Assembly (NCBI GenBank): GCA_036796695.1
Contig: DAIRCK010000001.1
Location: 128,145-192,144 of the forward strand
Direction: 5' to 3'
Source: a bacterium
GTDB taxonomy: Bacteria; Hydrothermota; Tepidihabitantia; SM23-42; JAOAFX01
DNA length: 64,000 nt
A program made the position numbers and the translations under genes. Shown one piece after another: positions 6,547-63,060 of the stretch; the first letter of the stretch is position 1; the number at the start of each line of letters is the position of its first letter. Under the pieces are notes generated by a model that saw only the letters and a program-made list of their open reading frames with translations, was not told the origin of the DNA and searched no databases.

Positions 6547-9450
6547 CTATCTTATCAGGATTCCGCGTGTGTTATAGTTTTTATCCTCTATCTGGAGGCT
6601 GAAGAAGTAAACACCTGCTGGAACCTTTCTTCCAAGTTCATCATCGCCATTCCATCTTATATTATAAACTCCAGGTGTCTTTGTCTCATTTATCAGATTA
6701 CGAACGAGTTGTCCAAGGGTGTTATAAACCTTCAGGCTGACCTTTGCTTTATTATCAACTGTGTAATAGATATTCACAGAATTATGACTTGGATTCGGTG
6801 CAAGACTTATCCGTTTTGTGCCCGGGTCAACATAATCGCTGAATTCTTCAACCGCTATCCAGTTTAACATCCTCGGTTGCTTGGTTGTAAATTTAATTGC
6901 TCTGCCGCTTGTAAGTGGTGCCGCACCTGTATCATACATCTTGTTGAAGAGATAGCAAATACCATACTTCTTCAGGGAATCCTGTTGACCGACTGTGCAA
7001 CTTGTTGTTGGTTCGGTAACACGCTTGTACTGTATAACAATGTCGTTCTTTAGACCTGGACCAGCAGTTGTTGAATCGTAGATAATAATCTGGAAAGTAA
7101 GCCTGTTATTTGCCGAACCAGTCACTGAATCATACTGGATTATAAACCGACGATTTGTGGCATCATTATAATACCACCAGGTGCTTCCGGTAGAACCCGT
7201 ATTAAGTGTATCCCAGAATGCCGCAACCATATTTGGTGCTGAAGTCTGAGAGCCGTAATCATACACCTTAGGCAGAATGCTATTATGCTGGACTGTAAGG
7301 GTTGTATTAAGGAATGCAATCCAGCCATTGGTACAGACAGAGAGACTGTCGGTTGTCGTATATCCAAGCCTTCGGGCATAATGTCTGATTGCAAAAGGAG
7401 AACGAAGGCGGCGTGTAACCATCGGTCCACCAGCACCAATTGATGTTCCTGGTCCACCATAATTCGGATTTATCTCTATCCAATTATATACAGGCCTTTC
7501 AGTATAGAAACTATCAGTATTATCAATGACAAAATAGCCTGCACTATCAGGACCACAAACCGAACCCATCCTCAATTGATAATAGAGTTTTCTTGTATAA
7601 GTGCCAGAGGTCAGTTCAAGTTCAAATGGAACAAGTGTGCCGATTTGGATAAGGGTATCTGCCTGGAGCACAAATGGGTCTGCACCATTATGGCCCTTTG
7701 CCTTTGGATTAATGGTTCCAAAGGTCGCAGTGGAATCAAGGATTGTGATACGGGGACTGGTTGTCCGTAATTTACCGGTCACATTTGTAGCAGCCGCAGT
7801 GCCAAGGTTAATGATTGTATCCACAAGGGTAATCCGTTCTGATGGGTCAAAGAAGCCATTGTTATTGCCATTGGTTGGCGGGTCAAGGACAACAGTCCCG
7901 ATTTCAGCCAATCTCAAATCCGGAAGTGAACCAGATGCAGGTGTGAAATCAATTGCCCTCTTTGCCCGAATCCTTCCTGCACCATACATTGTATCCTTAC
8001 CCGCAGTCCCCATGTCAAGGGCAGTGAATTGCATAATACTATCAATCTGGGCAACAGTGAGATTGGGATTTTTGGAAAGCATCAAGGCAGCAAGACCAGC
8101 ACAATGGGGTGTTGCCATAGAGGTACCACTCATTGTCACATAACCACTATTATTACTATAGCTACAAGAAACTATATTTACTCCAGGTGCGGCAATATCG
8201 GGTTTTAATATTCCAGATCCAGGTCTGAATGGATAATCCCAATACCAGGGTGCATTTTCCCAGCAGGATGGACCACAAGAAGAGAAATATGCAAGGGTAT
8301 CGGGTTGAGTCGTTGCTGCAACAGAAATAGCACCAGCAAGCCTTCCCTGGACCTCTGATGGATGGTGCCAGGGTGGTGGCACATCACCAGGACACCGAAG
8401 ATTATAAGGGACTGGACAATAAGAACCTGCAGAACCACGTTCATTCCCTGCGGCAATAAAATACGGAATACCTGCAAGGGCGACATTGGTTACTGACTTA
8501 CGCCACAAACTCCTTCTTGGTGTCCAGGCAACATACCAGCCTAAGGACATTGAAACAACATCAGCACCGTGCGTTGGTGATAGTGGTGGTGATATGACAA
8601 ATTGCATCGCATCAAGGACATTTTTCTCTGAAATCGTATCTGGCATCGGATAGGCGATCGAGGTCCTTACCCTTATTGCCATTATTGAACACTGGGGTGC
8701 AACACCACAGGAATCACCAGCAGACCCATCAGAGGCGATTGTGCCTGCACAGTGTGTTCCGTGGCCATTAGCATCAATCGGATTATTATTATTCTGCTCA
8801 AAATTCCAGCCATAATACGGATAATTCGGGTCAGTCCACATATGGTTTCTTAAATCAAGGTGATTGTAATTAACACCGGTATCAATTACACCTACGATAA
8901 CTCCCTGGCCTTTATACCCTGCTGCCCAGCAGGAGTCTGCAGCAATTTTAACAATATTCCACTCTTTGGTCCTGTAATCAAGGACATCGACTGGAACAGG
9001 ATTTCCAACGGTCAAGAGAATATTTTCACTTGTAATGTATGGATAGGTAATGAATGCTACATCTTTTTGATTTGCAATCTCATTGATTATATCTGGTGTT
9101 GCCTTGCAATATATTGCATTGATAATCCACAAAGACTGGATATCAGAAACCCTGTTTGACTGGGTCTGGAGGCTGAGGTAATTTATGATTGGTGCCTGGG
9201 TCCTTGCGGAAAGTTCTTTTAGATAATTCACCACAGGATACCTTTGTTCACGACGGGGTAAGTCTGCAACAAGATTGCGCAGATAATCCTCGTCTGATTG
9301 TTCGTTTAAAACAATCAAGACTTCTATCTGGTCATTACCCTCGGTCCGGGCAATGACATCTTCGAGTTGTGGGTCAATTAATGCCTTTGCCTCAGCAAGA
9401 CCCACAAGGGAGATCGCTAAGAGACATATTGTTATATTTTTCATTTTCAT
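6547..9450 (-). CDS. S8 subtilisin-family serine peptidase with a signal peptide and a T9SS C-terminal sorting domain.
   Basis: Catalytic triad motifs 'VGVIDTGV' (Asp), 'HGTHCAGTIAS' (His) and 'GTSMATPHCAGLAAL' (Ser). C-terminal T9SS CTD ('GVYFFSLQIEDKNYNTRGILI'). Start is set at the MKMKN signal-peptide Met, which has a GGAAAGGAG RBS upstream. Confidence 0.85.
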   Translation of the reverse strand: MKMKNITICLLAISLVGLAEAKALIDPQLEDVIARTEGNDQIEVLIVLNEQSDEDYLRNLVADLPRREQRYPVVNYLKELSARTQAPIINYLSLQTQSNRVSDIQSLWIINAIYCKATPDIINEIANQKDVAFITYPYITSENILLTVGNPVPVDVLDYRTKEWNIVKIAADSCWAAGYKGQGVIVGVIDTGVNYNHLDLRNHMWTDPNYPYYGWNFEQNNNNPIDANGHGTHCAGTIASDGSAGDSCGVAPQCSIMAIRVRTSIAYPMPDTISEKNVLDAMQFVISPPLSPTHGADVVSMSLGWYVAWTPRRSLWRKSVTNVALAGIPYFIAAGNERGSAGSYCPVPYNLRCPGDVPPPWHHPSEVQGRLAGAISVAATTQPDTLAYFSSCGPSCWENAPWYWDYPFRPGSGILKPDIAAPGVNIVSCSYSNNSGYVTMSGTSMATPHCAGLAALMLSKNPNLTVAQIDSIMQFTALDMGTAGKDTMYGAGRIRAKRAIDFTPASGSLPDLRLAEIGTVVLDPPTNGNNNGFFDPSERITLVDTIINLGTAAATNVTGKLRTTSPRITILDSTATFGTINPKAKGHNGADPFVLQADTLIQIGTLVPFELELTSGTYTRKLYYQLRMGSVCGPDSAGYFVIDNTDSFYTERPVYNWIEINPNYGGPGTSIGAGGPMVTRRLRSPFAIRHYARRLGYTTTDSLSVCTNGWIAFLNTTLTVQHNSILPKVYDYGSQTSAPNMVAAFWDTLNTGSTGSTWWYYNDATNRRFIIQYDSVTGSANNRLTFQIIIYDSTTAGPGLKNDIVIQYKRVTEPTTSCTVGQQDSLKKYGICYLFNKMYDTGAAPLTSGRAIKFTTKQPRMLNWIAVEEFSDYVDPGTKRISLAPNPSHNSVNIYYTVDNKAKVSLKVYNTLGQLVRNLINETKTPGVYNIRWNGDDELGRKVPAGVYFFSLQIEDKNYNTRGILIR

Positions 9451-9608
9451 CTCCTTTCCTGATTGCTCACATATAGAACCCTCTTCTCTCCCTTTCTCAT
9501 ATTTTTTTATTTTTTGCACCACCCCCTTTCACACTTAAGTCCTATTACTATATTATATTTAGAAATTTTATTTAGTCAAGGGTAAAAACACATTTATAAA
9601 TTGTGGCA

Positions 9609-11587: not shown

Positions 11588-12370
11588 TCAATTTTTCTTG
11601 TTCAGGACTTCCATCATCTGCCTGTGTATATAGCCATTCGTTCCCAGAACCTCTTTACCATATATATCAAATGGTTTACCTTTAAAATCGGTTATCTTCC
11701 CGCCTGCCTCTTTTAAAATTAGATAACCTGCTGCCTGATCCCAGGGTGAGAGTTTGATCTCCCAGTAACCATCAAATCTTCCACAGGCTGTATAACATAG
11801 ATCGAGTGCTGCTGAACCAAGCCTTCTCACTGCCTGGGCAGTTACACAGAATCGTGCAAAATAATCAAGATTATTCTCTTTGCTCACCCGGATATCATAA
11901 GGGAATCCAGTCACAAGTAGGCTCTTACCGAGTTTCTTTGTCTTTGATACATATATTTTTTTTCCATTTAAAAATGAACCCCTGCCTTTGATTGCTGAAA
12001 ATAACTCCTTTCTTGATGGGTCATAAACAATACCGAGCACAATCTCAGTTTCTACCTCAAGTCCAATAGATATTGCCCATATTGGTAGATTATGGGCAAA
12101 ATTTGTCGTTCCATCAAGTGGATCAAGAAGCCATTTTATTTTTTTGTGGGTATCATAACTGATATTTTCTTCACTTAAAATACCGTAATCCGGAAACTCT
12201 TTTTTCAAATAATTCACAATATTCTTCTGGGCAATATTATCAAACTGTGTGACAAGATTTACTGCACCCTTGTAAGATATTCTTTTTTTCCGATTTGAAA
12301 GATGATAGATGTAATCTCCAGTCTCTACAATAATCTTTATTGTCTTTACAAGTATTTTATTCAGGTCCAT
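11588..12370 (-). CDS. suhB: Inositol monophosphatase-family protein (SuhB/ImpA-like).
   Basis: 'WLLDPLDGTTNFAHNLPIWAISIGL' and 'WDQAAG' metal-binding motifs. Confidence 0.8.
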   Translation of the reverse strand: MDLNKILVKTIKIIVETGDYIYHLSNRKKRISYKGAVNLVTQFDNIAQKNIVNYLKKEFPDYGILSEENISYDTHKKIKWLLDPLDGTTNFAHNLPIWAISIGLEVETEIVLGIVYDPSRKELFSAIKGRGSFLNGKKIYVSKTKKLGKSLLVTGFPYDIRVSKENNLDYFARFCVTAQAVRRLGSAALDLCYTACGRFDGYWEIKLSPWDQAAGYLILKEAGGKITDFKGKPFDIYGKEVLGTNGYIHRQMMEVLNKKN

Positions 12371-13229
12371 TTTTGTTCTGCTTTTTTAAAATCCTTTCCG
12401 GCTCAATTATCGGCTTTATCTTTTCTGCTTCTTCAAAAGCAAGTTTTCCATATTTTGAGTCTTTATCAATCTTTATACATTTTTCAAAATCTTCAACTGC
12501 CTTGCGAAATTCGTATCTTTTTAATTCCGCAAGTCCTAAATAATAGTATGCTTCCTGGAGATTGGGTCCAAGTTTTAACGCCTCTTCAAAAAATCTTACG
12601 GCATCTGTAACCATTCCCCGCTCATAATATACCAATCCTAAATAAAAATTGGCATAGAGCCTTGCCATTCTATCTTTGGTCTGTTTTGTGACCTTGCTCA
12701 AATGCTCAATCGCCTCACCCCAGATTCCCTTTTTATAACATATAAATCCAAGATTGTTTAAGGCAAATGGATTCCCTGGTTCAATCAACAAAACCTTCTG
12801 GAAATAGAGCATAGCCTCGTCATAGAGTTCTTTATTCATCAGCACCAGGCCACTCAATCCAAGTGCCCGGGTGTTTTTCGGGTCAATTTCAAGCGCCTTT
12901 TTCAAAAAACCCATTGCCTCATCATAATCTTCCATAACAATCAGATTCCAGGCACGGTCAAGGAGTGTAGCAAGGTCAAGTTCTGGTGAGGTGCGTGCCT
13001 TTATAAATGAATAGAATCTATCCATATCTACCTTACTCGTCTTACGGTTCCGGAAATTCTGGGCAATCTGTCTCAATTCATCCTGTGCCTGATTTAGATA
13101 TTTAATATTATTAGCGATTTCAATATACACATTTTTTATCATATCTTTTATCATCTGCTCTTTATCCGGGGTGTATTCCTTTATCAGATTTTTCAATTCT
13201 TCAAGTTTCTTCTTAATTTCATCCATCAT
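12357..13229 (-). CDS. TPR-repeat protein.
   Basis: Multiple 34-aa TPR units (W-LG-Y...A...F...A). Overlaps suhB by 14 nt and cheB by 4 nt, indicating an operon. Confidence 0.65.
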   Translation of the reverse strand: MMDEIKKKLEELKNLIKEYTPDKEQMIKDMIKNVYIEIANNIKYLNQAQDELRQIAQNFRNRKTSKVDMDRFYSFIKARTSPELDLATLLDRAWNLIVMEDYDEAMGFLKKALEIDPKNTRALGLSGLVLMNKELYDEAMLYFQKVLLIEPGNPFALNNLGFICYKKGIWGEAIEHLSKVTKQTKDRMARLYANFYLGLVYYERGMVTDAVRFFEEALKLGPNLQEAYYYLGLAELKRYEFRKAVEDFEKCIKIDKDSKYGKLAFEEAEKIKPIIEPERILKKQNKNGPE

Positions 13230-14236
13230 AATACCGCCATTTCAGTCAATTTTTTTAAAATGAGATGCAGGGGTAAAACATAATCAACAGCACCTGCATC
13301 AATTGCAGATTGAGGCATACTTGCGATCGTTGCTTCTGCAGGTTCCTGGGCAATAGTTATACCACCAAATTGTTTTATCTTCAATAACCCCTTTGTTCCA
13401 TCATGCCCCATTCCGGTGAGAACAATTCCCATTGCCTTATCTTTAAATACATCCGCCATTGATTCAAAAAGATAATCCGCACAGGGTTTTAATCCATACC
13501 TTGGAGATTCATCAGTTAATATAACTGATTTACCAGAAGGATGTATCTTTATATGACTACCCCCGGGTGCAATCAAAACTGTGTCGGGCAATATCTGATC
13601 GTTTTGTGCTGCTTCTTTAATATTAAGAATTGATTTTTCATTTAGGTGCAGTGCCAGACTCGCAGTAAAGAATTTTGGCATATGCTGGACAACGATAATT
13701 TTATAACCTGAATCTTTTCTTAAAGATGAGAGTAAAAAATTCAAAGCCTTCACACCACCTGTGGACGATGCAATTCCGATTATAAAATCAACTTTTTTTA
13801 AACCAGGGGTTACTTGAGGAATGGATACAAATGAACGGAGATTTGCCTGTGCAACATATCTCAATTTTTGGATCAATTCTTCTTTAAAATCATAAAGATC
13901 AATAGAGATAGGACCTGATGGTTTTGGGAAAAAATCGACTGCACCGAGATTAAGGGAATTTATGGTAACTTCTGCGCCTTTGTGTGTATGTGCAGAGAGC
14001 ATCAGAACCGGTGTCGGTCTAATCGACATAATCCTTTGAAGAAATACAAGGCCATTCTCTCCGGGCAGTTCATAATCCAGGGTAATGACATCGGGTTTGG
14101 ATTTATTAAACTTTGCCCATGCCTCATCAACATTTCTTGCATATCCACAGATTTCAAATTCACCAGAAGATTGAATAATATCTCCTATCACCCTTTGCAT
14201 CAATACAGAATCTTCAACAATCAATACCTTCTTCAT
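13226..14236 (-). CDS. cheB: Chemotaxis response regulator protein-glutamate methylesterase.
   Basis: N-terminal REC domain ('VLIVEDSVLMQRVI...DVITLDYELPGENGL') and a C-terminal CheB methylesterase domain ('IGIASSTGG', 'HMPKFFT', 'VLTGMGHDG'). Confidence 0.85.
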   Translation of the reverse strand: MKKVLIVEDSVLMQRVIGDIIQSSGEFEICGYARNVDEAWAKFNKSKPDVITLDYELPGENGLVFLQRIMSIRPTPVLMLSAHTHKGAEVTINSLNLGAVDFFPKPSGPISIDLYDFKEELIQKLRYVAQANLRSFVSIPQVTPGLKKVDFIIGIASSTGGVKALNFLLSSLRKDSGYKIIVVQHMPKFFTASLALHLNEKSILNIKEAAQNDQILPDTVLIAPGGSHIKIHPSGKSVILTDESPRYGLKPCADYLFESMADVFKDKAMGIVLTGMGHDGTKGLLKIKQFGGITIAQEPAEATIASMPQSAIDAGAVDYVLPLHLILKKLTEMAVL

Positions 14237-14239
14237 ACC

Positions 14240-14701
14240 CTATATCTTCTTTTCCCCATGGCGATAAGATTTTATCAAAACCTCACCGGTGCTGACATCA
14301 AAGAAAATTGTTCTTCCCCAGTTTCCGTGCACATCCTCACCAACAATTGGTATTGAATGTCTTCGCAGTTGCTCCTTTGTTTCAATGACATTCCTTTCAC
14401 CGATTGAAGTTTGTAATAATTCACCAAACATTGTTGAACCACCTGCTATCTTTGCAACAATCTGATTTTGTTCAATACCCATCTCAGAAAAATGTCTGAG
14501 TAATTCCTCAATCGCACCCTTAGGATGTTTGAAACTACCATCTGCACCATGGGGCAAAAGAATGTGTGCTAATCCACCGGTGCGGGTTTTTGGTTCATAT
14601 AGTGCAAGAACCACACAGGAACCAACACCATATGCAGAAAGTATTGCCTCTCCCCTGACAACCTTTACTTCACCAATACCAACCTTGATTTCAGTCGCCA
14701 T
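14240..14701 (-). CDS. cheD: Chemoreceptor glutamine deamidase.
   Basis: 'LSAYGVGSCVVLALYEPKTRTGGLAHILLP' is the CheD signature, with the catalytic Cys in the GSC motif. Confidence 0.8.
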   Translation of the reverse strand: MATEIKVGIGEVKVVRGEAILSAYGVGSCVVLALYEPKTRTGGLAHILLPHGADGSFKHPKGAIEELLRHFSEMGIEQNQIVAKIAGGSTMFGELLQTSIGERNVIETKEQLRRHSIPIVGEDVHGNWGRTIFFDVSTGEVLIKSYRHGEKKI

Positions 14702-14724
14702 AATTTATAATCTCTAATGTATTA

Positions 14725-15510
14725 TCATAAGGCAATCTTCTTGTACACACGTTCTGTCCTATTCACAATATTAAAAAATTTTGCCTCAGGAATACCAAGG
14801 AGCAATTCAACCTTACCGATAACGAGATAACCACCGGGTCTGAGAGTTTCGTAAAACCTGTGGACAAGTTCAGATTGAGCATCCCTGCTCATATAGATCA
14901 AGACATTACGGCACATAATCAGATCACAGGGTCCGTGCGGAAAATTATCAAACAAATCAAGATGGAAGAACTTTACAATTGATTTTATATTATCCTTAAT
15001 TCTATAATCTCCATTATATTTTACAAAATATTTTTTTAGATATTCTGATGGTGTATATTGGAATGCGGTTATTGGATAGATCCCCTGTTCAGCCTTATTT
15101 AGCGCATCATCATCAATATCGGTTGCATAAATTATCGTCTTTTCTATAATAGCTGTTTCAGAGGCCATCATTGCCAGAGAATATGCCTCTTCACCCTGGG
15201 CACAACCCGCACTCCATAAAATCACTTTTTCATTTTTAGCAAATTCAGGCAAAATATCCGTCTTTATATACTCAAATGTCTCAAAGTTTCTAAAAAAATA
15301 TGAAAGGTTTATCGTAATGGTACTGAGTAGTTTTTTAAGTTCTTCAGGATTTTTATTGAGATAGTCATAATACTGAGAAAATTCATTCAATCCAAGTGCA
15401 CGCATCCTCACCCTTATTCGTCTGGTCAGAGGTCTTTCTTTATAACTGTGACATTTAAAACCTGTCTTCTCCTCAATTAATTTTATCAAATTCTGGAAAT
15501 TATGTTCCAC
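14725..15510 (-). CDS. cheR: Chemotaxis protein-glutamate O-methyltransferase.
   Basis: CheR N-terminal helical domain ('TGFKCHSYKERPLTRRI', 'FFRNFETFE') and SAM-methyltransferase domain ('ILWSAGCAQGEEAYSLAM', 'IMCRNVLIY'). Confidence 0.85.
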   Translation of the reverse strand: MEHNFQNLIKLIEEKTGFKCHSYKERPLTRRIRVRMRALGLNEFSQYYDYLNKNPEELKKLLSTITINLSYFFRNFETFEYIKTDILPEFAKNEKVILWSAGCAQGEEAYSLAMMASETAIIEKTIIYATDIDDDALNKAEQGIYPITAFQYTPSEYLKKYFVKYNGDYRIKDNIKSIVKFFHLDLFDNFPHGPCDLIMCRNVLIYMSRDAQSELVHRFYETLRPGGYLVIGKVELLLGIPEAKFFNIVNRTERVYKKIAL

Positions 15511-17086
15511 GAGACTTTTTCAGCAATTCAATGTTCTGGGTAATTATGGTATTGGTGGGGTTTAAATCTTTTGCCTTTTCCCAGTTATTTAAGGCACCAT
15601 CAGCATCACCGAGTCTCATCAATATATTTCCTAATTTAAATAATACTTCCCAGTCCTTTTCTTCTTCTGGAATTTTCTCGTAGAACTCCTTTGCCGCGCC
15701 AAGAATCTGGGATTCATAATAGAAATCAGCAAGGTTTCTGCAGATCTTATTATTCTGTGGTTCATCGTTTATTGCCTGACGATAAAGACGCTCCGCTTCT
15801 TCAGGTAAATCGAGTGATTCATAAATGACTGCAAGATTATTTTTAAAAAGGGCAAGGCGTGGAAATTTATCAATACATTCCTTGAGAAAATCAACCGCTT
15901 TCTTTACATCATTTAATTTTATGTATATTAAAGGCAGATAAATGTAAGGGGTGATAAATTCCGGTTTTTTTTCAATTACTCTTTTAAATAAACTCTGTGC
16001 CCCATCTAAATCATTCTGGTTGAACAAGACAATACCTAAATTACAATTTATCCGCGGATCATCCGGCGACAACTCAAGGGCTTGATTAAGATAGATCTTT
16101 GCCTGTTCAAAAATTCCCAATTTATTATACAAATAACCTAAATTGTTTAATATGGCTGGATTTTTTTCTACTTCTCCTGCCTTTTTCAAAAACTCCTCAG
16201 CCTTTTCAGGATAATTCCTTCTCAATTCAATGAGACCACAATACATTAAAGACTCTGCGTTATCAGGCGCTATCTCCAATACCTTCCTGAATTCCCGTTC
16301 GGCTTCATCATACATCCCGGTTTTGAAAAAGGCGAATCCAAGATTTTTATATTCATTTACATCACCAATTGCCTTTTTTGCAATCTCGGTCTTTTCGGGT
16401 TTTTCGACAATACCGGCTGAAATCAAAGCATATATTGTGCGACAGGTCTCAAAAAAATCAAATTCGGATAACTTCAAAATATCATCAATGGTGCGATTTC
16501 CATCAATCAATTGAAGTATCTTCAATTCTTCTTCAGTCAGTGGAATCTCGCTGTAATCCTTTTTTACTGCAAGAATTGACTCAAATGAAGGTAATCTTTT
16601 TTCAAGTTTACGCCATTCATCAATTCGCCTCGCACCTTCAAGTAAGAGTTCCTGGGGTGATAACTGCACAAGAAATTCTTCGCTTCCGGGTAATAAATCA
16701 GCCTCAAAATTGAAATATCCTGTCTCCCAGGTAAGCATCGTAAATATCGTTTCTGCTATTTGATTTGCAAGTTCTTTCTCAAGGATTTCTTTTGTAATAT
16801 ATCCATTTTCAACCAGGATTTCTCCTATCCTCTTATTTGTCTTCTTCTGTTCTTCAAGTGCTGATTTCAAAATAGATTCTTCAATCACCTGTTTGCGTAA
16901 AAGAATATCACCCAGGCGGTCCTTTCTATTCAATAATGTAGCATAGATAATCTTCCCATCTTTGATAAAGATATTCCCAAAATTCTTTCCATCAGTAACA
17001 GAAAGACAACCCGACCTCAAAGAAAAACTCAAAAGCTGAATGACATCAGGCAGGCTGGCTTCGCTTAATGAACCTTTTATAGCCAT
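15500..17086 (-). CDS. DUF4388 (PatA-N-terminal/PATAN-like) domain protein with C-terminal TPR repeats.
   Basis: The N-terminal ~100 aa ('GSLSEASLPDVIQLLSFSLRSGCLSVTDGKNFGNIFIKDGKIIYATLLNRKDRLGDILLRK') fit the DUF4388 pattern. The C-terminal half contains about 7 TPR units. Confidence 0.6.
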   Translation of the reverse strand: MAIKGSLSEASLPDVIQLLSFSLRSGCLSVTDGKNFGNIFIKDGKIIYATLLNRKDRLGDILLRKQVIEESILKSALEEQKKTNKRIGEILVENGYITKEILEKELANQIAETIFTMLTWETGYFNFEADLLPGSEEFLVQLSPQELLLEGARRIDEWRKLEKRLPSFESILAVKKDYSEIPLTEEELKILQLIDGNRTIDDILKLSEFDFFETCRTIYALISAGIVEKPEKTEIAKKAIGDVNEYKNLGFAFFKTGMYDEAEREFRKVLEIAPDNAESLMYCGLIELRRNYPEKAEEFLKKAGEVEKNPAILNNLGYLYNKLGIFEQAKIYLNQALELSPDDPRINCNLGIVLFNQNDLDGAQSLFKRVIEKKPEFITPYIYLPLIYIKLNDVKKAVDFLKECIDKFPRLALFKNNLAVIYESLDLPEEAERLYRQAINDEPQNNKICRNLADFYYESQILGAAKEFYEKIPEEEKDWEVLFKLGNILMRLGDADGALNNWEKAKDLNPTNTIITQNIELLKKSRGT

Positions 17087-18985
17087 TTATTCGCTCCTGG
17101 TCAAGGGCACATAATTTTCTTCAAGGAGTTCATCAGACATTTCCTGAATTATCAGGCGCTCTTCCTTTAATTTTTTAAACGGGGTTTCAACAGGCTGGGG
17201 TTGAGATTCTACCGCTGGTTCAATAACCTGAGTTATCTCCTCCTGTGGTTCTATTTTTGCAATAACTTTTTCTTCAATAACCGGCTGGATAACTTCTTCA
17301 CCCGGTAGTCCCAAACTTATGATTTCTTCTAATGGTTTTTCCTCAGAAGGGATCTGCGGCTTTCTTGAATCAATAATGAATGAATCGATTTCATTGAAAT
17401 TTTTGAACTGTGGTATCCCCTTTGTTTTCAGCAGATCATATTCTTCAGGAGAAATTTTTGATTTAAGATAAAGTTCGGTTATCTCCGGATCCGGCTCTTT
17501 TAAAATTACTTCTACGCCGAGTTGGAATATCATCTTTTCATTTTCATCAAGCACAATATCATCACCAAATGGTTCGGAAAAAATAAATACACCTTTTTCC
17601 TGTCTAATGTATTCAACAATATTCTCAATCACCCTGTTACGTAAGTCATTATCCAAAAGAAAAATCTTATGAAAATTATCAATCAATAAAACATCTTTTT
17701 CATCTTTTGCTTCAGGAAGATTCTGTATATCTTTTTCAAAATCCCATATCACTGGATTATATCCACGAAATCTTAAATCCTCTGAGATCGCCTGACAGAG
17801 GAATGTCTTTCCAGTCCCTGCACTGCCCAAAATTATATATGGATTGAATTCTTTGCCTAAGGAAGGAATTATTGTCTTTTCATAAAGTTCAACCGCGGTC
17901 CTGTTGCAATCGGTGATCCAGTAATTCTCAAAAAATTTCCTCTCCGCACCCTTCAATTTCTCTTTTATTGAATTCAGCAATGACTCAATTTCATCTATTT
18001 TGTCGGGTGAAAAAAGCATGGTCTCAATCTTCATTCCATCTTCAGGGAATTTTGAAACATCCAGGGCACCAAATTCTTTCTGTAATTCAATCAATCTTTC
18101 TACTTTTTTGATAAAAACATTATAGGCGCTGGCAAGTGTATCAATATCAGCATCAAGCAGTGGTTTTAATGCTGATGTATCAAAGCCCTTCATTTCCCAG
18201 ATATAAATTTTTTCTTTGTATTCTGTGCGTGGATCCTTGACCTCTGTGATCTCGGTGATTGCTTCATCCGCACTTTTTTTCAACTCCTCAACAAGAGAAG
18301 CAACCGGACTATATATACCCCGCGGATAAAATTCTTTTAATATCAAACGGATTGTATTTAAATCAAAAGTGATATTACCGAGTGATGCATAGGCAACCAA
18401 TCTATTCAACATTCCATCTATTGTTCTCAAAGAACCACCGGACAATTGAGTGAGTTCAAGGGCGATTTCGTCTGGAACAATAATTCCCCTTTCTTCAGAT
18501 TTCTTTTTTATAAACTCTACCAGTGCCATTTCACGGGGTGCCTGAAGATCACATACCAGACCACCTTCAATACGCGATATGACCTTCTGACCCAAATTCT
18601 TCAACTCACGGGGTGGTGCATTCCCGCTGAAGCATAATTGTTTATTTTTCGTGATTAAAATATCAATCATTGTAAGTATAGAATCCTGGAATTTTTCGCT
18701 AACCCGGTTTATATCATCAACAAATACCGCTGTATCAAACTGGGAATTTTTTTGCAAATATTCTTCAAATTCCTTAGGTGTAAAAATCAAAATATTTTCT
18801 TTTTTACTTAATTCAGTGTAAAGGGTCCATAAAAAATGGGTTTTACCATAACTACCTGTAGCATAAATATAAAGGGGATTGAATACTTCTCCCGGAAACT
18901 GGACAACCTTCTGGGCTGCCATAAATGCAACCTTATTTCCTTCATAAACATAAAAATTGTCAAAATTAAAATTCTTTTTAATCAT
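17087..18985 (-). CDS. Tandem DnaA/Hda-like AAA+ ATPase (two P-loop modules) with a C-terminal acidic Pro/Glu-rich low-complexity tail. It has no DnaA domain I or domain IV.
   Basis: Module 1 has 'FDNFYVYEGNKVAFMAAQ...NPLYIYATGSYGKTHFLWTL', 'VFVDDIN', 'LCFSGNAPPREL' and a sensor-2-like 'GSLRTIDGMLNRL'. Module 2 has 'NPYIILGSAGTGKTFLCQAI' and 'VLLIDNFHKI'. The tail is 'PQIPSEEKPLEEI...PQEEITQVIEPAVESQPQPVETP'. Confidence 0.6.
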   Translation of the reverse strand: MIKKNFNFDNFYVYEGNKVAFMAAQKVVQFPGEVFNPLYIYATGSYGKTHFLWTLYTELSKKENILIFTPKEFEEYLQKNSQFDTAVFVDDINRVSEKFQDSILTMIDILITKNKQLCFSGNAPPRELKNLGQKVISRIEGGLVCDLQAPREMALVEFIKKKSEERGIIVPDEIALELTQLSGGSLRTIDGMLNRLVAYASLGNITFDLNTIRLILKEFYPRGIYSPVASLVEELKKSADEAITEITEVKDPRTEYKEKIYIWEMKGFDTSALKPLLDADIDTLASAYNVFIKKVERLIELQKEFGALDVSKFPEDGMKIETMLFSPDKIDEIESLLNSIKEKLKGAERKFFENYWITDCNRTAVELYEKTIIPSLGKEFNPYIILGSAGTGKTFLCQAISEDLRFRGYNPVIWDFEKDIQNLPEAKDEKDVLLIDNFHKIFLLDNDLRNRVIENIVEYIRQEKGVFIFSEPFGDDIVLDENEKMIFQLGVEVILKEPDPEITELYLKSKISPEEYDLLKTKGIPQFKNFNEIDSFIIDSRKPQIPSEEKPLEEIISLGLPGEEVIQPVIEEKVIAKIEPQEEITQVIEPAVESQPQPVETPFKKLKEERLIIQEMSDELLEENYVPLTRSE

Positions 18986-19389
18986 ATCATCCTCAAGATA
19001 TTTTTCACATTCTTTGTAAATTCTTCGGAAGCGACCTTAACCACACCGGGTATTGTTCGATCATCAAATAATGAAACGAGCAGGTAATTCCCATCGAGTG
19101 CCACATAGTATAGACTCGCCCTGCCCCCTTCCTGTAACAATTCAAAAAAATTTTTTTCTCCTATAATATGAGCCAGTTCCATTGTAGAATTAAATATATT
19201 ACAAGTAAGGGCAGCAATGGCCAAAACATCAAAGGATCTTGTAAAACCCCGCTGAACCAAAAGGTGCCCCGAACTTGTTATCAACATTGACCATATCACA
19301 TTGGTCTGACTATAAAAATCACCCAGCAATTTTTCCAATTTCTCAATCTGGGCATCGGTTAAGGTAATCGTCGCAAAATTTCCCTTCAC
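18982..19389 (-). CDS. Roadblock/LC7 (MglB-like) domain protein.
   Basis: 135 aa with a roadblock-fold pattern ('VIWSMLITSSGHLLVQRG', 'LAIAALTCNIFNSTMELAHIIG', 'YYVALDGNYLLVSLFDD'). 4-nt overlap with the downstream ATPase gene. Confidence 0.6.
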   Translation of the reverse strand: MKGNFATITLTDAQIEKLEKLLGDFYSQTNVIWSMLITSSGHLLVQRGFTRSFDVLAIAALTCNIFNSTMELAHIIGEKNFFELLQEGGRASLYYVALDGNYLLVSLFDDRTIPGVVKVASEEFTKNVKNILRMI

Positions 19390-19436
19390 ATAAAATTATA
19401 ATAAATTTTTTTAAAAAAGTCAATACAGAATTAAGG

Positions 19437-22571: not shown

Positions 22572-23765
22572 TTGTTTATGGAATTGCTCTTTAACTTACG
22601 CAATAACCAATTGCTAAAAGAATTAAAAGAAATTGGGGTAGCATCTGAAGCATATCCAATATTTTTAAAAAAGTCTGAATATCAGATAATTAAAATTAAG
22701 AAAATTTCACCTGCCCAGGCTAATATCTTGAAACAGATTGCATTGATTTGTGGTGGTGATGTAGCGATACCAAAAGATGCATATTTTGGTTCAAAAAGAA
22801 AGAGATTTGACGTTCTTTTGTTTGCCAATTTAAGGGAAATTGAGAAAATGATAACCCGATTACAGGAACAACCATGGATGGAACAACTCAAAAATCAATT
22901 ATCTATGATAATCAATCCTGTTGAAAAACCAAGTTTAAAGATTGGAAATGAAGAAATAAGATTTGAACGAACTTATATAATGGGCATTATCAATATCAGC
23001 CCTGATTCTTTTTACAGTGGCAGTCGCTACACTACTTTATCAACGGTTAAAAAAGTAATAGAAGAGATGGAACAGGAAGGCGCAGACTTCATTGACATCG
23101 GTGCTGAATCAACCCGGCCCGGAGCAAAAATGCTTGGTGAAAAGGAAGAGATAGAAAGATTAAAATCTGTTTTGCCGGTTGTTGTCAAGTTTTCACGTGT
23201 TCCAGTTTCGGTTGACACATACAAAGTAGAAGTAGCAAAATATGCCCTGGACCAGGGAGTAAGAATAATAAATGATATATCCGGTTTTGGGTTTTATCAA
23301 CCCAACAAAAGACTTGCCCGCGTAATTGGACAATATAAGGCTTGTGTTGTTATAATGCATATTCAGGGGACCCCAAAAACGATGCAAATAAATCCTCAAT
23401 ACAAAAATCTCTTATCAGAAATCAAAAATTATCTTAAAGAAAGAATCGATTTTGCAGTTCAGAATGGGATCGATTTGAATAGGATCATCATTGATCCGGG
23501 TTTGGGATTTGGCAAAAGGTTAGAAGATAATTATGAAATAATTGAAAGACTTGCTGAACTCAAGATATTCAGGCGTCCGATCCTTGTTGGACACTCACGC
23601 AAGTCATTCATAGGCAATCCATTTAATTTACCACCTGAAGAAAGGTTAGAAGGCACCCTTGCTGTAGAGGCATTGTTGATAAAAAATGGCGCCTCGATCG
23701 TCCGTGTTCATGATGTTCTGGAAGCAAAAAAAGTTGCACAGTTGATTGACAAAATCACAAAATGA
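22572..23765 (+). CDS. folP: Dihydropteroate synthase with an N-terminal ~130-aa extension of unknown function.
   Basis: The pterin-binding DHPS core starts at 'IMGIINISPDSFYSG' and includes 'DFIDIGAESTRPGA', 'SVDTYK', 'IINDISG' and 'DPGLGFGK'. The preceding ~130 aa do not match a DHPS domain. Confidence 0.85.
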   Translation: MFMELLFNLRNNQLLKELKEIGVASEAYPIFLKKSEYQIIKIKKISPAQANILKQIALICGGDVAIPKDAYFGSKRKRFDVLLFANLREIEKMITRLQEQPWMEQLKNQLSMIINPVEKPSLKIGNEEIRFERTYIMGIINISPDSFYSGSRYTTLSTVKKVIEEMEQEGADFIDIGAESTRPGAKMLGEKEEIERLKSVLPVVVKFSRVPVSVDTYKVEVAKYALDQGVRIINDISGFGFYQPNKRLARVIGQYKACVVIMHIQGTPKTMQINPQYKNLLSEIKNYLKERIDFAVQNGIDLNRIIIDPGLGFGKRLEDNYEIIERLAELKIFRRPILVGHSRKSFIGNPFNLPPEERLEGTLAVEALLIKNGASIVRVHDVLEAKKVAQLIDKITK

Positions 23766-24517
23766 AGTTATTTGGATTTCTCAATCTCAACACCCTTGAT
23801 CTCATTGACATTGTAATAGTTGCAATTTTAATATATCAGTTTCTGAGGTTTATAAAAGGGACCAAGGCAACCCCAATTTTGTTCGGGATTTTAACTATAT
23901 TTGTAGTATCATTCATCGCACGCTGGTTTAACCTCAGAGCCTTGGCCTGGATAATGAATTCCATCCTTGCAGTCTGGGTTGTTGCCTTTGTCATACTCTT
24001 CCAGCCAGAGATAAGAAACGCCCTGGCATTCATTGGTAGACAACGTCCCCTGCGATTTTTTTTCAAAGTTGAGCCTTTTCCAACTGTAAGTGAAATAATT
24101 GGTGCAATAAAAAAACTTTCTGAACAGCGGCATGGTGCACTAATTGTCATTCAAAGGAATGATAGTCTTAGCGATATAATTGATTCCGGTGTGCGCATTG
24201 ATGCCTTAGTAAATTCCATTTTGATTCAAAGTCTTTTCTTCCCGGATAATCCATTACACGATGGAGCCTGTATTATTCAGGGCGATAAAATTATTGCTGC
24301 TTCCTGTGTCTTACCATTGAGCGAAAATCCTGATCTGGGCGGTAAATTTGGTTTGAGACACCGTGCTGCCCTGGGAATTGCCGAGCATACAGATGCATTC
24401 TGCATCGTAGTTTCTGAAGAAACCGGGAGAATCTCCTTTGCATACAAAGGTAAACTCATCACACGGGTCTCCGCAGATGCCCTGGCAAAAACATTAAAGA
24501 AGGTGATTAAAGAATAG
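23762..24517 (+). CDS. cdaA: Diadenylate cyclase (c-di-AMP synthase, CdaA/DacA type).
   Basis: Three N-terminal TM helices and a DAC domain ('HGALIVIQ', 'LHDGACIIQGDKIIAASCVLPLS', 'GLRHRAALGIAEHTDAFCIVVSEETGRIS'). 4-nt overlap with folP. Confidence 0.85.
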   Translation: MKLFGFLNLNTLDLIDIVIVAILIYQFLRFIKGTKATPILFGILTIFVVSFIARWFNLRALAWIMNSILAVWVVAFVILFQPEIRNALAFIGRQRPLRFFFKVEPFPTVSEIIGAIKKLSEQRHGALIVIQRNDSLSDIIDSGVRIDALVNSILIQSLFFPDNPLHDGACIIQGDKIIAASCVLPLSENPDLGGKFGLRHRAALGIAEHTDAFCIVVSEETGRISFAYKGKLITRVSADALAKTLKKVIKE

Positions 24518-41963: not shown

Positions 41964-43616
41964 TCAATCCCAGAATTCCCATTTTATTTCCATACTGAAA
42001 TTGCGCACTATCTCAGGAAAATCCTCTGGTCTTGTGTCTGTTACATTGTCAAAAATCAAACCAAGATGGAGGGTTAAAAATTTTAGACTCAAACCCGGGG
42101 AGATTGTGAAGAATGGCTCGTAGTAATTGCCTGAGGGACAATGTCTCGCATTCACATAGTTAAATCTTGTATATACATTCATAACCGAACGCTCGGTCTT
42201 TCTCTTCCAGTTCAAAGTAAAATTTGTGAAAAAATCTGGAAATGCTGATGGAAAGTCATTATATATCTGATAATTACACACACCGGTCGCAGAAAAACCT
42301 TTTATAACCGGAGAAATAAGGATACCTTCAATCCCGGTAATCTTATTATCAACATTTACCACTGAACAACTATCATTTCCTGTGGTCTGATAAATGATTT
42401 GATTTTTAATATTTGCATTATACAGATTAATCTCAGAATTCCTGAAGACCACACCGATTTCTCTATGGAAATAGGTCTCAGCCTTTATATCGGGGTTTCC
42501 TTTGATAATCAAATTTCTGTCTACGAATTCATAGTTCCCATAATGCGCAATAAAATCAGGTCTTCTGTTGAATAACCCGGACCTGGCGAATATTTTTGCT
42601 TTGTTTAAAATCTCGAAATTCAATCTTGCCTCTGGTTCAAAGTAGATTTTATCCGACCCGTAATCAACACGATAACCAATTCCAGCAATTATCTTATTGA
42701 ATTTACAATTTGTATTCTGGGAAAAGTCTACTTTATTATTTTTATATTTCCCGGGCTTAAATTGACTGGTTAAGACATCGATTTCAAATGTATTTTCTAA
42801 ATTGCCCAAATAAAATAAAAATTTATGCTGTGTGCCATAGGTCAAAAATTGATTTTCTCTTTCTTTGTTGTTTATTTTACTGGCAGTTCTAAAAAATATG
42901 AATTTATAAAAATCTTCTCCTGCTGTCAATGTGATATCACTAAAATCTAAATTTATTATTGTGTCATAAGAATTACCGGTTATAACTATGTCAAGGCGCA
43001 TCGGCATAAAATGATTGTAGTAAAAATTAGCATATCCAGCATTTGTGCGCAGATAAAGTTTCTCAGCATTTCTGTAATGGCGTGAATAAAGTCCACCAAG
43101 ATAAAAACCGGCTGAATTTGTCAGGGCACGGGTAAAATCCATATTATAGATTGTGTTTGGCCCGAATAGAGTAAAATAGAGATAAGAATAGGGCTGGTCA
43201 TAATTATTAAATTTTGTGTTTAAATCAATACTATTTACTCCTGAATTAATATATTTTTTAATAAACACAACAGATTTTATAAAATTATATGGGAAAACCG
43301 TGAAATTAAAACCTTTGGAAAAATATTGATCAAGATAATGAGAATTGATTAGAACCGTAAAAGGATACAGGCTCAGCAAATTAACAATATATCCTTTTTC
43401 CTTCATTATATAAGGAGAATTTCGGAATAGATCTGAAAATCCGGATAAAAAAATATCAGGCTCGATGACCCGTATCTGATTTAAAGCACTATCAAGTATA
43501 CCTGTGGTACTAAAACTTATTATCTCTGGAATTGCATATCTTCGAACCGGGGTTGAATCAACCACCGTCGTATCTGAAGATAATCCATTGCTCAAAAGGA
43601 ATAACCATAAAAACAC
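41964..43616 (-). CDS. Hypothetical outer-membrane protein, probable beta-barrel, heading the PTS operon.
   Basis: N-terminal hydrophobic signal-like segment. Composition is rich in Y/F/N/G with alternating hydrophobic residues, and the C-terminus is aromatic-rich ('IKWEFWD'). No recognizable family. Confidence 0.4.
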   Translation of the reverse strand: MFLWLFLLSNGLSSDTTVVDSTPVRRYAIPEIISFSTTGILDSALNQIRVIEPDIFLSGFSDLFRNSPYIMKEKGYIVNLLSLYPFTVLINSHYLDQYFSKGFNFTVFPYNFIKSVVFIKKYINSGVNSIDLNTKFNNYDQPYSYLYFTLFGPNTIYNMDFTRALTNSAGFYLGGLYSRHYRNAEKLYLRTNAGYANFYYNHFMPMRLDIVITGNSYDTIINLDFSDITLTAGEDFYKFIFFRTASKINNKERENQFLTYGTQHKFLFYLGNLENTFEIDVLTSQFKPGKYKNNKVDFSQNTNCKFNKIIAGIGYRVDYGSDKIYFEPEARLNFEILNKAKIFARSGLFNRRPDFIAHYGNYEFVDRNLIIKGNPDIKAETYFHREIGVVFRNSEINLYNANIKNQIIYQTTGNDSCSVVNVDNKITGIEGILISPVIKGFSATGVCNYQIYNDFPSAFPDFFTNFTLNWKRKTERSVMNVYTRFNYVNARHCPSGNYYEPFFTISPGLSLKFLTLHLGLIFDNVTDTRPEDFPEIVRNFSMEIKWEFWD

Positions 43617-59661: not shown

Positions 59662-60523
59662 GACTGACCCATTTACATTCGGTTCTGTTTGTGCCCTGGG
59701 TAATTTTGACGGCATTCATCGTGCCCACCAGGAAATAATAAATAAAATAAAAAAAATAGCAAATGGTTTAAAAAAAACCGGTATTATTACCTTCAATCCT
59801 CCACCCGTATCAATTCTCCATAAGGATGGAATTTTTTTTCTTACAACAAAAGAAGAAAAGGAAGAAATCCTGAATTCACTCGGGATTGATTTTGTTTATT
59901 ATTTCGAATTTGATATAAATTTTTCTCAAAAATCTCCAGAAGAATTTGTCGAACTGATTTATACTTCAATAAAACCATCAATGGTAATCATCGGTGAGAA
60001 TTTCCATTTTGGTAAAGGACGTAAAGGAAATGCAAGTCTATTAAAAAACCTCGCTCGGAATAGATTTGATGTGGAAATAATCCCCAGGATAAAAGACCAG
60101 AATGGTGTAATATCAAGCACAAGAATCAGGGAACTTTTATTACTCGGGCATATCCCTGCTGCAAATAGACTATTAGGGCGAGAATATACAATAACCGGAG
60201 AGGTAATAAAAGGCAAGGGCAAGGGTGCAAAACTCGGTTTTCCTACAATAAATCTATCTATTAATAAAGATAAATTACTGCCACTTGATGGGGTCTATGA
60301 AGTAAAACTTGAAATTAAAGGTAAGGATTATCAGGGGGCAATGTTTTTAACACACAATGTAATTGAAGTCCATATATTAGATTTTTCAGGTAATTTATAC
60401 GGTCAGAAAATAAGTACAAAATTGGTGAAAAGATTGCGGGCGATAAAAAAATTTCCTGATGATGAATCATTAAAAAAGGCGATTGCGGATGATATAAAAA
60501 GAATCAAAGACCCTAAAATTTAA
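59642..60523 (+). CDS. ribF: Bifunctional riboflavin kinase / FMN adenylyltransferase.
   Basis: 'ALGNFDGIHRAHQ' (FAD synthetase HxGH-like) and the C-terminal riboflavin kinase region 'GRKLGFPTINL', 'GVYEV'. Confidence 0.85.
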   Translation: MQVLYNKTDPFTFGSVCALGNFDGIHRAHQEIINKIKKIANGLKKTGIITFNPPPVSILHKDGIFFLTTKEEKEEILNSLGIDFVYYFEFDINFSQKSPEEFVELIYTSIKPSMVIIGENFHFGKGRKGNASLLKNLARNRFDVEIIPRIKDQNGVISSTRIRELLLLGHIPAANRLLGREYTITGEVIKGKGKGAKLGFPTINLSINKDKLLPLDGVYEVKLEIKGKDYQGAMFLTHNVIEVHILDFSGNLYGQKISTKLVKRLRAIKKFPDDESLKKAIADDIKRIKDPKI

Positions 60524-62324: not shown

Positions 62325-63060
62325 AATGCCTCCATTTTTTCCTTAATTTTATTACAAACTTAGTGCCTTTTTTGGGCTGGCTCTCTACAAAAATTTCACC
62401 TTTTAACAGACTCACAATTCTTTTACAAATATAAAGACCGAGTCCGGTTCCTTCCACATCAGGACGGTGTTTAAAATGGGTTATGCCGAATGGCTCAAAC
62501 AGATATTTTAAATCTTCCTGATATATTCCGCACCCTGTATCCTGAACTACAATATCAACAAATTCCTGGGTATCAGTAAGTTCAATCCTTATACCTCCTT
62601 TTTCAGTAAATTTTATCGCATTACTCAAAAGATTAATCAGTATCTGTCTTATCCTCTTTTCATCTGAGATAATCTCAATTCTATTTGAAATGATTGTCTC
62701 TATAGATAATCCTTTTTTCTCTAATGCAGGCTTGAATGAATCTACTATTTCAGATATCAGTTTATTAAGATCCAGAATGCTCAATGAAAGTCTTTCTCGG
62801 GTCAATTCAATCCCGCCGATTTCCACGATATCATTGATCAATGAAAGCAGGTGTTTTGCATTATTTTTTACAATCGTTAGTTGTTCTGCTTGCTCACTGT
62901 TTATTGCACCTGAATATTCTTTGAGTAAAATATCCGTAAAACCAATAATTGAGTTCAAGGGTGTTCTCAATTCGTGTCCCATTGTTGAAATAAGTATATT
63001 TCTCCTTTTATCTAACTCTTTCAATTCTTCATTTTTGACCTTATCTCGAAACGCATTCAA
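62302..63060 (-). pseudogene. Cytoplasmic core (HisKA + HATPase_c) of a sensor histidine kinase, apparently separated from its membrane N-terminus by a frameshifting 58-bp insertion.
   Basis: H-box 'MGHELRTPLNSIIGF', N-box/G-boxes 'LLSNAIKFT' and 'DTGCGI', 'GTGLGL'. The ORF begins with TTG inside a coiled-coil segment, 'KNEELK', that is duplicated in the upstream ORF. Confidence 0.6.

Follow-up and report, generated by a model that had tools for sequence, protein, structure and literature searches.

Layout of the locus

The present analysis concerns a string of eight genes in a 64-kb stretch of contig DAIRCK010000001.1, which was analysed over its whole length and is called the window hereafter. 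According to the open reading frame (ORF) table of the window these genes occupy positions 11588-19389 of the minus strand, where they are co-oriented and tightly packed, in agreement with a preliminary description of the same DNA. In the direction of transcription they encode an MglB-family Roadblock/LC7 protein (135 aa, 18982-19389), a tandem DnaA-type AAA+ ATPase (632 aa, 17087-18985), a protein which combines a PATAN domain (DUF4388) with tetratricopeptide repeats (TPR; 528 aa, 15500-17086), the protein-glutamate methyltransferase CheR (261 aa, 14725-15510), the deamidase CheD (153 aa, 14240-14701), the methylesterase CheB including its receiver (REC) domain (336 aa, 13226-14236), a second TPR protein with a helical N-terminal region (290 aa, 12357-13229) and a phosphatase of the SuhB/IMPase family (260 aa, 11588-12370). 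From the mglB-like gene to suhB the successive junctions consist of a 4-nt overlap, an abutting pair, an 11-nt overlap, gaps of 23 nt and 3 nt and, finally, overlaps of 4 nt and 14 nt. No terminator-like site is found at any gene boundary inside the string.

The components of a chemosensory core are missing. An ORF-level Pfam scan, which covered the cluster plus all 49 other window ORFs of at least 100 aa, yielded neither MCPsignal nor Hpt/H-kinase_dim, CheW or a stand-alone CheY. Likewise, no match in the window was obtained by tblastn with queries for methyl-accepting chemotaxis proteins (MCPs), the signalling domain of E. coli Tsr, two CheA proteins, CheW and CheC. The lack of CheA, CheW, CheY and MCP, which had been noted for the cluster alone, thus holds for the entire 64 kb.

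Proteins encoded by the cluster

The 135-aa roadblock protein does not match any Pfam family at E ≤ 0.01, Robl_LC7 included. The NCBIfam model MglB recognises it over its full length with an E-value of 1e-11, which is under the equivalog cutoff. Searching the PDB with a profile of 21 orthologues retrieves Myxococcus xanthus MglB (6h5b_B) with an E-value of 5.7e-22, again over the full length (aa 6-132), and Thermus MglB at 7e-11. In addition, the orthologue encoded on a soil contig (L051) reaches Robl_LC7 in Pfam itself (29.3 bits, cutoff 23). On the basis of these matches the protein is assigned to the MglB family, by which the previous, correct classification as a roadblock/LC7 protein is narrowed.

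Pfam finds two Bac_DnaA segments in the AAA+ protein (E 5e-27), and a second P-loop lies around aa 383. About 106 full-length homologues are retrieved, of which the named ones belong almost exclusively to candidate division WOR-3 and one to TA06; past these, the scores drop abruptly to true DnaA. The AlphaFold model of the protein has a mean pLDDT of 73. Its first module (aa 1-217, 18335-18985), modelled with a pLDDT of about 90, is a complete DnaA domain III-like ATPase in which the family alignment identifies Walker A (G47-K48-T49), Walker B (D90-D91), a box VII-type arginine (R138) and the sensor-2 arginine (R195). It matches DnaA in the PDB (8btg) at 1e-44, and superimposition by Foldseek onto domain III of B. 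subtilis DnaA (8bv3_A) results in a TM score of 0.83 and an rmsd of 2.8 Å. Scored against whole-protein models, the sequence reaches 153 bits for DnaA (TIGR00362, cutoff 344) and 82 bits for Hda (cutoff 195). Hence, of the former designation "tandem DnaA/Hda-like AAA+", the two Bac_DnaA-type segments stand, while "Hda-like" turned out to be imprecise, as module 1 is nearer to domain III of DnaA.

Module 1 is followed by a linker helix (aa 221-249, 18239-18325; ...YSPV-SSL[LV]EELKK[NS]A...) which is highly conserved and at the same time modelled with a pLDDT below 50; it probably represents a partner-binding motif, and its residues E233/E234 constitute a speculative candidate modification site. 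An all-helical domain between the two modules (aa 252-346, 17948-18232), visible in the family alignment and in the AlphaFold model, harbours the invariant motif W-E-M-K-G-F-D, which is specific enough to be used as a scan pattern and as such retrieved the AAA+ family. In module 2 (aa 362-541, 17363-17902), delineated by nSTAND3/AAA matches at 383-469, the alignment and the model, the P-loop G387..G392-K393 is kept. Since its Walker B position reads D436-N437, this module probably binds nucleotide without hydrolysing it. The protein ends in an acidic tail (aa 544-632, 17090-17356) which is predicted to be disordered (pLDDT 25-35) and contains an invariant LGLPGEE motif, present in up to about four repeats in homologues. 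A further tail motif, EL[IL]E[ED]N[YF], forms the extreme C-terminus of most homologues and is followed by 7-8 extra residues in the clade of the window. The tail is probably a docking peptide.

The third core protein, described beforehand as DUF4388 (PATAN) plus TPR, is confirmed as such by a match to PF14332 (E 1.8e-34) and to Pfam TPR families. As the PATAN match extends from aa 4 to aa 159 for a model of merely 122 positions, it contains an insertion. This insertion (aa 57-109, 16760-16918) carries a tandem MshEN-type motif (NCBIfam NF053729, 58.2 bits, cutoff 38) whose two copies read RLGDILLRKQVIEESILKSALEEQ ... KRIGEILVENGYITKEILEKELANQ, to be compared with the 24-residue MshEN consensus RLGxx[LVI][LVI]xxG[LVI][LVI]xxxxLxxxLxxQ. 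The motif is kept in all 33 orthologues examined (33/33); in the first copy the central glycine is replaced by lysine or glutamine. Judged from this motif, the PATAN-TPR protein is a probable sensor of cyclic di-GMP (c-di-GMP). At a distance from the cluster, the window encodes a REC-PAS-PAS-HD-GYP (HD_5) protein whose gene overlaps that of a small HisKA-HATPase kinase (60513-63060, minus strand). The two probably make up a c-di-GMP phosphodiesterase pair under phosphorylation control, and they could provide input to the MshEN-type motif in PATAN-TPR.

The assignments of CheR, CheD, CheB, the second TPR protein and SuhB proposed earlier agree with Pfam and NCBIfam. CheR matches CheR_N and CheR in Pfam (4.9e-51) as well as the NCBIfam CheR model, and the catalytic residues of its S-adenosylmethionine domain are intact. 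CheD belongs to the CheD family with an E-value of 3e-24, and the Cys and His which we take as its catalytic pair are present (GVGSCV..., LAHILLP). CheB contains Response_reg and CheB_methylest and scores 332 bits against NF001965 (cutoff 293); aligned to E. coli CheB, it retains the phospho-acceptor D54 and the Ser/His/Asp triad. Since these catalytic residues and D54 are intact, all three enzymes seem to be active, and CheB seems still to be under the control of phosphorylation. The second TPR protein is recognised by Pfam TPR families and the phosphatase by Inositol_P.

Conservation in WOR-3/TA06 and in other lineages

A scan of one genome per species, mapped by tblastn and blastp, provided 36 loci from WOR-3, Stahlbacteria or TA06. 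The genes for MglB, the AAA+ protein and the PATAN/TPR protein are adjacent in 35 of them, the PATAN/TPR gene comes after the AAA+ gene in every locus, and the 4-nt overlap of the AAA+ gene with the mglB-like gene is retained across loci. As the AAA+ proteins of these roughly 36 species are merely 34-86% identical and the neighbourhood recurs in contigs of Gemmatimonadota type (see below), the arrangement reflects conservation and not compact gene packing. That the cluster might be a fragment of a standard che operon is contradicted by the finding that neither CheA nor CheW, CheY or MCP is encoded within ±10 kb of the cluster in any of the 36 loci.

Sequence downstream of the PATAN/TPR gene is visible in 33 loci. 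It contains CheR-CheD-CheB in 26 of these, and in the remaining seven (7/33), from which all three genes are absent, the IMPase gene directly follows the PATAN/TPR gene. Of the 25 loci with a complete CheR/D/B set, 22 also encode the second TPR protein, compared to none of the seven loci without CheR/D/B (0/7). As this protein is gained and lost together with the three enzymes it belongs to the Che cassette, and the four genes behave as a unit which can be detached from the core. Throughout WOR-3 the IMPase gene keeps its synteny with the cluster, the loci devoid of CheR/D/B included, and it does not occur in the extended operons described below; whether it is a functional member of the system is uncertain. 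In place of the TPR protein and the IMPase, two divergent WOR-3 loci (L031, 15733-17310, and L032) encode after CheB a polytopic membrane protein of 525 aa without Pfam match.

Upstream of the mglB-like gene three contexts are observed, namely def-fmt-rsmB in the clade of the window, a 142-aa protein/DHH/MglA arrangement in 13 loci, and other arrangements. In the second of these (L015, L016, L018, L021, L023-L027, L029, L030, L033 and L036) a 198-aa GTPase gene directly adjoins the mglB-like gene, and its product matches M. xanthus MglA (PDB 6hjh) with an E-value of 3e-67, which identifies it as a true MglA. The preliminary description had contrasted the roadblock protein with a P-loop partner that is a double AAA+ module and no small GTPase; the idea that the AAA+ protein stands in for the GTPase has to be abandoned, since MglA is encoded directly before the AAA+ gene or its mglB neighbour in these 13 loci and, with the exception of L039, in all extended operons recovered on the mglB side. 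By tblastn, MglA was not found in the 64-kb window. Given that mglA adjoins mglB in sister lineages, the roadblock protein has its usual partner there, and the clade of the window has probably just separated mglA from mglB. In one further locus (L049) the mglA gene immediately precedes the AAA+ gene, with overlapping stop and start codons and no MglB gene in between.

All 13 WOR-3 MglA sequences (13/13) have glutamine at the position of the intrinsic arginine finger R53 (TELDQTLFFD compared to TETDRTLFFD in M. xanthus), while MglA of L049, L051 and L052 retains arginine at this position. To judge from this exchange, GTPase cycling in WOR-3 may depend on an arginine provided in trans or may run slowly. 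The clade with the second upstream context also encodes, in front of mglA, a predicted membrane protein of 142 aa and a DHH/DHHA1 (RecJ/NrnA-like) protein of about 500 aa (L016 6920-8846 and equivalent sites in 12 other WOR-3 loci), a pair with a possible tie to nucleotide or second-messenger turnover. Neither of these two proteins was detected when the window was searched with tblastn.

More distant relatives of the AAA+ protein are encoded in extended, co-directional operons on a metagenome-assembled genome (MAG) labelled "bacterium" (L039), on the soil contig L051, on L052, in the metagenome loci L054-L059 and on a 178-kb contig of a Gemmatimonadetes MAG (L133). Furthermore, a member of the protein cluster of P0242, a distant tandem AAA+ relative, bears the label Gemmatimonadota. 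The operon comprises roughly 19 genes with up to three copies of CheW and no MCP gene. Its order is CheW, CheY, CheA, CheC, a TPR protein of ~900 aa, a PATAN/TPR protein of ~380 aa, TPR+Roadblock, Roadblock, MglB-like and MglA, continued by the tandem AAA+ protein, a PATAN/TPR protein of ~540 aa, CheR, CheD, CheB, two further CheW, a TPR protein of ~287 aa and Peptidase_MA_2. In every extended locus from which the sequence on the mglB side was recovered MglA adjoins mglB and lies directly before the AAA+ gene, the sole exception being L039, which encodes a single-module AAA+ protein and no MglA. The ~287-aa TPR protein occupies the same relative position as the second TPR protein of the window and is a candidate orthologue. 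On L133 the housekeeping genes ileS, lspA and rluD precede the first CheW.

WOR-3, L039 and the Gemmatimonadota-type operons share the order PATAN/TPR followed by CheR-CheD-CheB, and L047 retains it with CheR only, even though the AAA+ proteins diverge by more than 60%. The core is thus of ancient origin and set within a Che pathway, and WOR-3 keeps the adaptation enzymes beside it, or none. As the same core resides inside full Che operons elsewhere, the WOR-3 cluster is a reduced form. The term "adaptation-only", which had been coined for it, denotes a lineage-specific reduction, for the homologous operons carry CheA, CheY, CheC and up to three CheW.

Some variations of the extended operon are worth recording. 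In L055 an extra AAA_22 ATPase (15913-16713) is inserted between the CheB and CheW genes, and the third CheW lies upstream of CheY. The Peptidase_MA_2 protein is conserved as the last gene (L051 16841-17662, L054-L057 and L059). A second Gemmatimonadetes MAG (L134, 8563-12653) contains at one site only PilZ-CheW-CheY-CheA-CheC, followed by gatB; this partial set indicates that the extended operon can be split, with a PilZ c-di-GMP receptor preceding the che genes of L134.

Interpretation and comparison with known systems

Our preferred explanation, which we consider fairly probable, is that the window harbours the WOR-3 version of a conserved cytoplasmic module which is built around the MglA/MglB switch and has a Frz-like link to a Che pathway. 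Its invariant core would consist of the MglB-type GTPase-activating protein (GAP), the tandem DnaA-clade AAA+ protein and the PATAN-TPR protein. With one catalytic module, one degenerate module and a tail of docking motifs the AAA+ protein would act as a nucleotide-dependent hub which binds MglB/MglA, and its tail, by analogy with EEVD-type tails on TPR clamps, would recruit TPR proteins. The PATAN-TPR protein would sense c-di-GMP by means of its MshEN-type insertion and relay the signal, probably to the type IV pilus or to other polar machinery. This output is suggested by known PATAN proteins and by TPR effectors of MglA; PATAN response regulators, for instance, bind the type IV pilus motor PilB1 (bioRxiv 10.1101/2021.06.11.447907), and mglA/mglB genes recurrently adjoin PATAN genes, as noted in PMC4316618, which cites Makarova et al. 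2006 for this. CheR, CheD, CheB and the second TPR protein would be the remnant of a complete Che pathway with CheA, CheY, CheC and three CheW. Chemosensory input would reset the polarity GTPase as Frz does on MglA/MglB, with both parts joined in one transcription unit. In the organism of the window, mglA and any cheA, cheW and mcp would lie elsewhere or be lost. Coupling of the adaptation enzymes to an NTPase switch of polarity or motility, with the receptor encoded elsewhere, had been put forward at the outset and is still the most reasonable reading. The system probably controls pili. The closest relative of L039 CheA that lacks a P2 domain is encoded in a PilMNOQ-CheW-MCP-CheY-CheB-CheA-CheC locus. 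The first and only WOR-3 strain in culture forms thin rods bearing pili, and no swimming was observed (PMC12285271); the WOR-3 genome and isolate papers together with their supplements mention no chemotaxis or motility genes beyond the statement that pili were seen and no motility.

Several observations weigh against this explanation. TA06 DG_78 is without an MglB gene at the cluster position. The exchange of R53 for glutamine in WOR-3 MglA implies that the GTPase cycle may differ from the Myxococcus model. The IMPase as well as the DHH/DHHA1 and 142-aa membrane proteins of one clade are conserved neighbours which remain outside the model. Finally, the closest relatives of the extended-operon CheA are CheAs of Sporomusaceae and Gemmatimonadota. 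These two taxa account for most of the labelled sequences among the best 120 database matches of L039 CheA, none of which is labelled WOR-3, although this says nothing on absence from WOR-3. We would expect the CheAs of both taxa to serve flagella for the most part, so that a flagellar output is conceivable in those phyla.

The most economical assumption as to the methylation substrate is an MCP encoded elsewhere. None of about 45 loci, however, contains an MCP gene, not even the ~19-gene operons with every other Che component, and one may conceive that CheR, CheD and CheB modify a protein of the cluster, be it the ...SSLLEELKK... helix of the AAA+ protein or a TPR/PATAN protein, and thereby tune the MglA/MglB hub. 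We regard such MCP-independent methylation as rather improbable. It would be in line with the linker segment being conserved in spite of its low pLDDT, as expected of a bound or modified motif, and with the invariance of E233/E234 in the 26 CheRDB-positive WOR-3 loci, opposed to degenerate residues (Q, A, K, G) in five of the seven negative ones. Among 107 AAA+ homologues EE predominates at this position, and a few have Q, K or H. A precedent for CheR acting on a non-MCP protein exists in PhoP, which is methylated at adjacent acidic residues (PMC8546571). On the other hand, no strict match to the MCP consensus [ASTG][ASTG]xx[EQ][EQ]xx[ASTG][ASTG] occurs in any of the eight cluster proteins. 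The correlation of E233/E234 with CheRDB is phylogenetically confounded, since the clade devoid of CheRDB has also altered many other conserved AAA+ positions including R138; moreover, L018 has lost CheRDB and retains EE, while the distant Che-containing loci L039 and L047 have not kept it. As an MCP-like E/Q methylation pair E233/E234 was consequently rejected and kept as no more than an idea of low probability. Also rejected as possible substrates were the product of the 605-aa ORF after CheR in L047, which is beta-rich and without MCP features, and the polytopic 525-aa membrane protein after CheB in L031. Moreover, CheW and the P5 domain of CheA, which normally dock onto MCP hairpins, are both encoded in the extended operons, the former three times. 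Nor is an MCP-free che operon unusual by itself: the fla/che operon of B. subtilis is likewise not known to contain an MCP gene, such operons are common, and MCP genes are commonly scattered outside che operons. A chemosensory system altogether devoid of receptors, in which MglB/MglA-AAA+-PATAN/TPR would replace the MCP array, CheA and CheW would dock on it and CheR/CheD/CheB would reversibly methylate or deamidate one of its proteins, such as the AAA+ protein at its conserved EE helix, likewise seems rather unlikely to us. If it did exist, the polarity GTPase switch would have its own methylation-based memory.

Further alternatives question whether the neighbouring genes, or the AAA+ protein, take part in such a system at all. 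CheR/D/B and the second TPR protein might serve an ordinary chemotaxis pathway encoded elsewhere and have no tie to MglB, the AAA+ protein and PATAN-TPR, as the cassette is dispensable in 7/33 loci, cheR and cheD are separated by a gap of 23 nt and the housekeeping genes def-fmt-rsmB and suhB are co-directional with the cluster, too. We consider this quite improbable in view of the shared gene order PATAN/TPR to CheR-CheD-CheB in the different lineages, the 11-nt overlap of the PATAN/TPR and cheR genes in the window and the location of Che genes on both sides of the Mgl/AAA+/PATAN genes in the extended operons. A role of the AAA+ protein as a replication or cell-cycle regulator, a DnaA/Hda paralogue which would couple replication or segregation, instead of motility, to polarity, appears very unlikely. 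Homologues are publicly annotated as "DnaA/Hda family protein", and module 1 is indeed nearest to DnaA domain III in sequence and fold, its Walker A and B motifs, arginine finger and sensor 2 being intact. Yet the protein differs from DnaA and Hda by its tandem organisation with a degenerate second module, its family-specific helical domain and its acidic tail. It gives no match to Bac_DnaA_C (PF08299, domain IV), which true DnaA carries in the same searches, and its N-terminus, MIKKNFNFDNFYVYEG, when read by eye, shows neither DnaA domain I nor anything like the Hda clamp-binding motif. Furthermore, its gene is not near dnaN or an origin-like region according to the ORF scan of the window; it is always encoded with MglB and PATAN-TPR, in a signalling context, and in other phyla inside a che operon. 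The probability that the locus is a STAND/TPR-type conflict (anti-phage) system we deem practically negligible: module 2 does match nSTAND3 in Pfam (35 bits, cutoff 27) and the combination of an NTPase with TPR is common in defence, but PADLOC reports only weak generic P-loop, TPR and methyltransferase matches, an effector domain is absent, the context is stable and housekeeping with a gene order kept across a phylum, and the GC content of the cluster (0.364-0.367) lies inside the range of the window.

Among described systems the one most worth comparing with the module around MglA/MglB is Frz-Mgl of Myxococcus. In both cases a Che-type pathway with CheR and CheB is tied to the MglA GTPase and its GAP MglB, and in both a TPR accompanies the methyltransferase, FrzF being a CheR-TPR fusion while the TPR protein of the present cluster is a separate one that goes along with CheR/D/B. 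The likely output, polarity of surface motility, is shared as well. In M. xanthus the Frz pathway reaches MglA by way of RomR, and the frz and mgl genes are unlinked (PMC4316618); here the two gene sets form one operon. Frz possesses a cytoplasmic MCP, FrzCD, whereas no locus analysed here encodes one; the cluster of the window is without CheA, CheW and CheY; WOR-3 MglA lacks the R53 arginine finger; and in place of a RomR/RomX-like protein, which was not seen in the cluster, the tandem DnaA-type AAA+ protein and PATAN-TPR are present. Because no locus encodes an MCP and the cluster no RomR-like REC protein, we describe the cluster as one that "works like" Frz and not as a member of the Frz-type systems.

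Published MglA/MglB-PATAN neighbourhoods (Makarova et al. 2006; Wuichet and Sogaard-Andersen 2014) resemble the present locus in that mglB, and in relatives mglA as well, lies beside a PATAN gene. In their accessible parts these sources mention occasional PATAN neighbours only, and neither an AAA+ protein nor Che enzymes or a fixed gene order. The cyanobacterial Tax/Pix systems of PatA type (PATAN-REC) also feature a PATAN protein in a chemosensory operon. There, PATAN is fused to a receiver and not to TPR, and MCP, CheA and CheW are present without CheR/CheB, which is the opposite complement to that of the window. In Bdellovibrio, MglA, the TPR protein Bd2492 and CdgA/RomR reportedly form a complex at the pole, that is, an MglA-centred hub with a TPR protein and a c-di-GMP receptor. 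Its components are unrelated in sequence to those described here, its receptor is a degenerate GGDEF protein and not PATAN/MshEN, and it includes neither an AAA+ protein nor Che enzymes.

While the association of MglA/MglB with PATAN and signalling from Frz to Mgl are already known, no description of a fixed Che + MglA/MglB operon, of a tandem AAA+ protein as its obligatory partner or of the "adaptation-only" and "no-Che" derivatives in WOR-3 was found in the searchable literature, in accordance with the initial impression that the combination is undescribed. For chemosensory control of MglA/MglB, Myxococcus is the only case understood in detail; its two gene sets are unlinked, and genetic work established how they are connected. 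In the loci analysed here the Che-Mgl connection is embodied in a conserved operon, which recurs in no fewer than two lineages that branch deeply and are mostly uncultured (WOR-3/TA06 and the Gemmatimonadota-type group). The tandem DnaA-clade AAA+ protein, always encoded after mglB/mglA, and the PATAN-TPR proteins with their c-di-GMP-binding motif are parts new to study; together with the others they provide a defined parts list with which the wiring of Ras-like polarity switches, both to sensory pathways and to second messengers, may be tested in bacteria other than myxobacteria. Full operon, adaptation enzymes only and no Che genes represent natural variants for comparison, and they raise the question of whether Che adaptation enzymes always require an MCP.

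Flanks of the cluster and other genes of the window

In the window, def, fmt and rsmB lie upstream of the mglB-like gene in the same direction, and the downstream end of the eight-gene string faces a convergent gene of the IF-2B family. The 47-nt gap between rsmB and the mglB-like gene contains a sigma-70-like promoter site, TTGACT-17 nt-TATAAT (19395-19423, minus strand), which is a pattern match agreeing with 11 of 12 consensus positions. The GTG start codon of the mglB-like gene follows the end of the -10 hexamer by 5 nt (19389-19400), which leaves no room for a Shine-Dalgarno sequence. Judged from this spacing, the mglB-like transcript may be leaderless, unless the promoter match is spurious.

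Elsewhere in the window two ORFs, of 550 aa (41964-43616, minus strand) and 640 aa (50556-52478, plus strand), do not match any Pfam family at E ≤ 1e-6; the former lies within a PTS-mannose/GH57 sugar cluster. A CdaA-type diadenylate cyclase, i.e. a c-di-AMP synthase, is encoded right after a pterin-binding (FolP-like) gene (23762-24517, plus strand). Finally, a 991-aa subtilase (6547-9522, minus strand) bears a C-terminal FlgD_ig/CHU_C-like domain, a sorting signal of the type IX secretion system (T9SS), which hints at type IX-like secretion.

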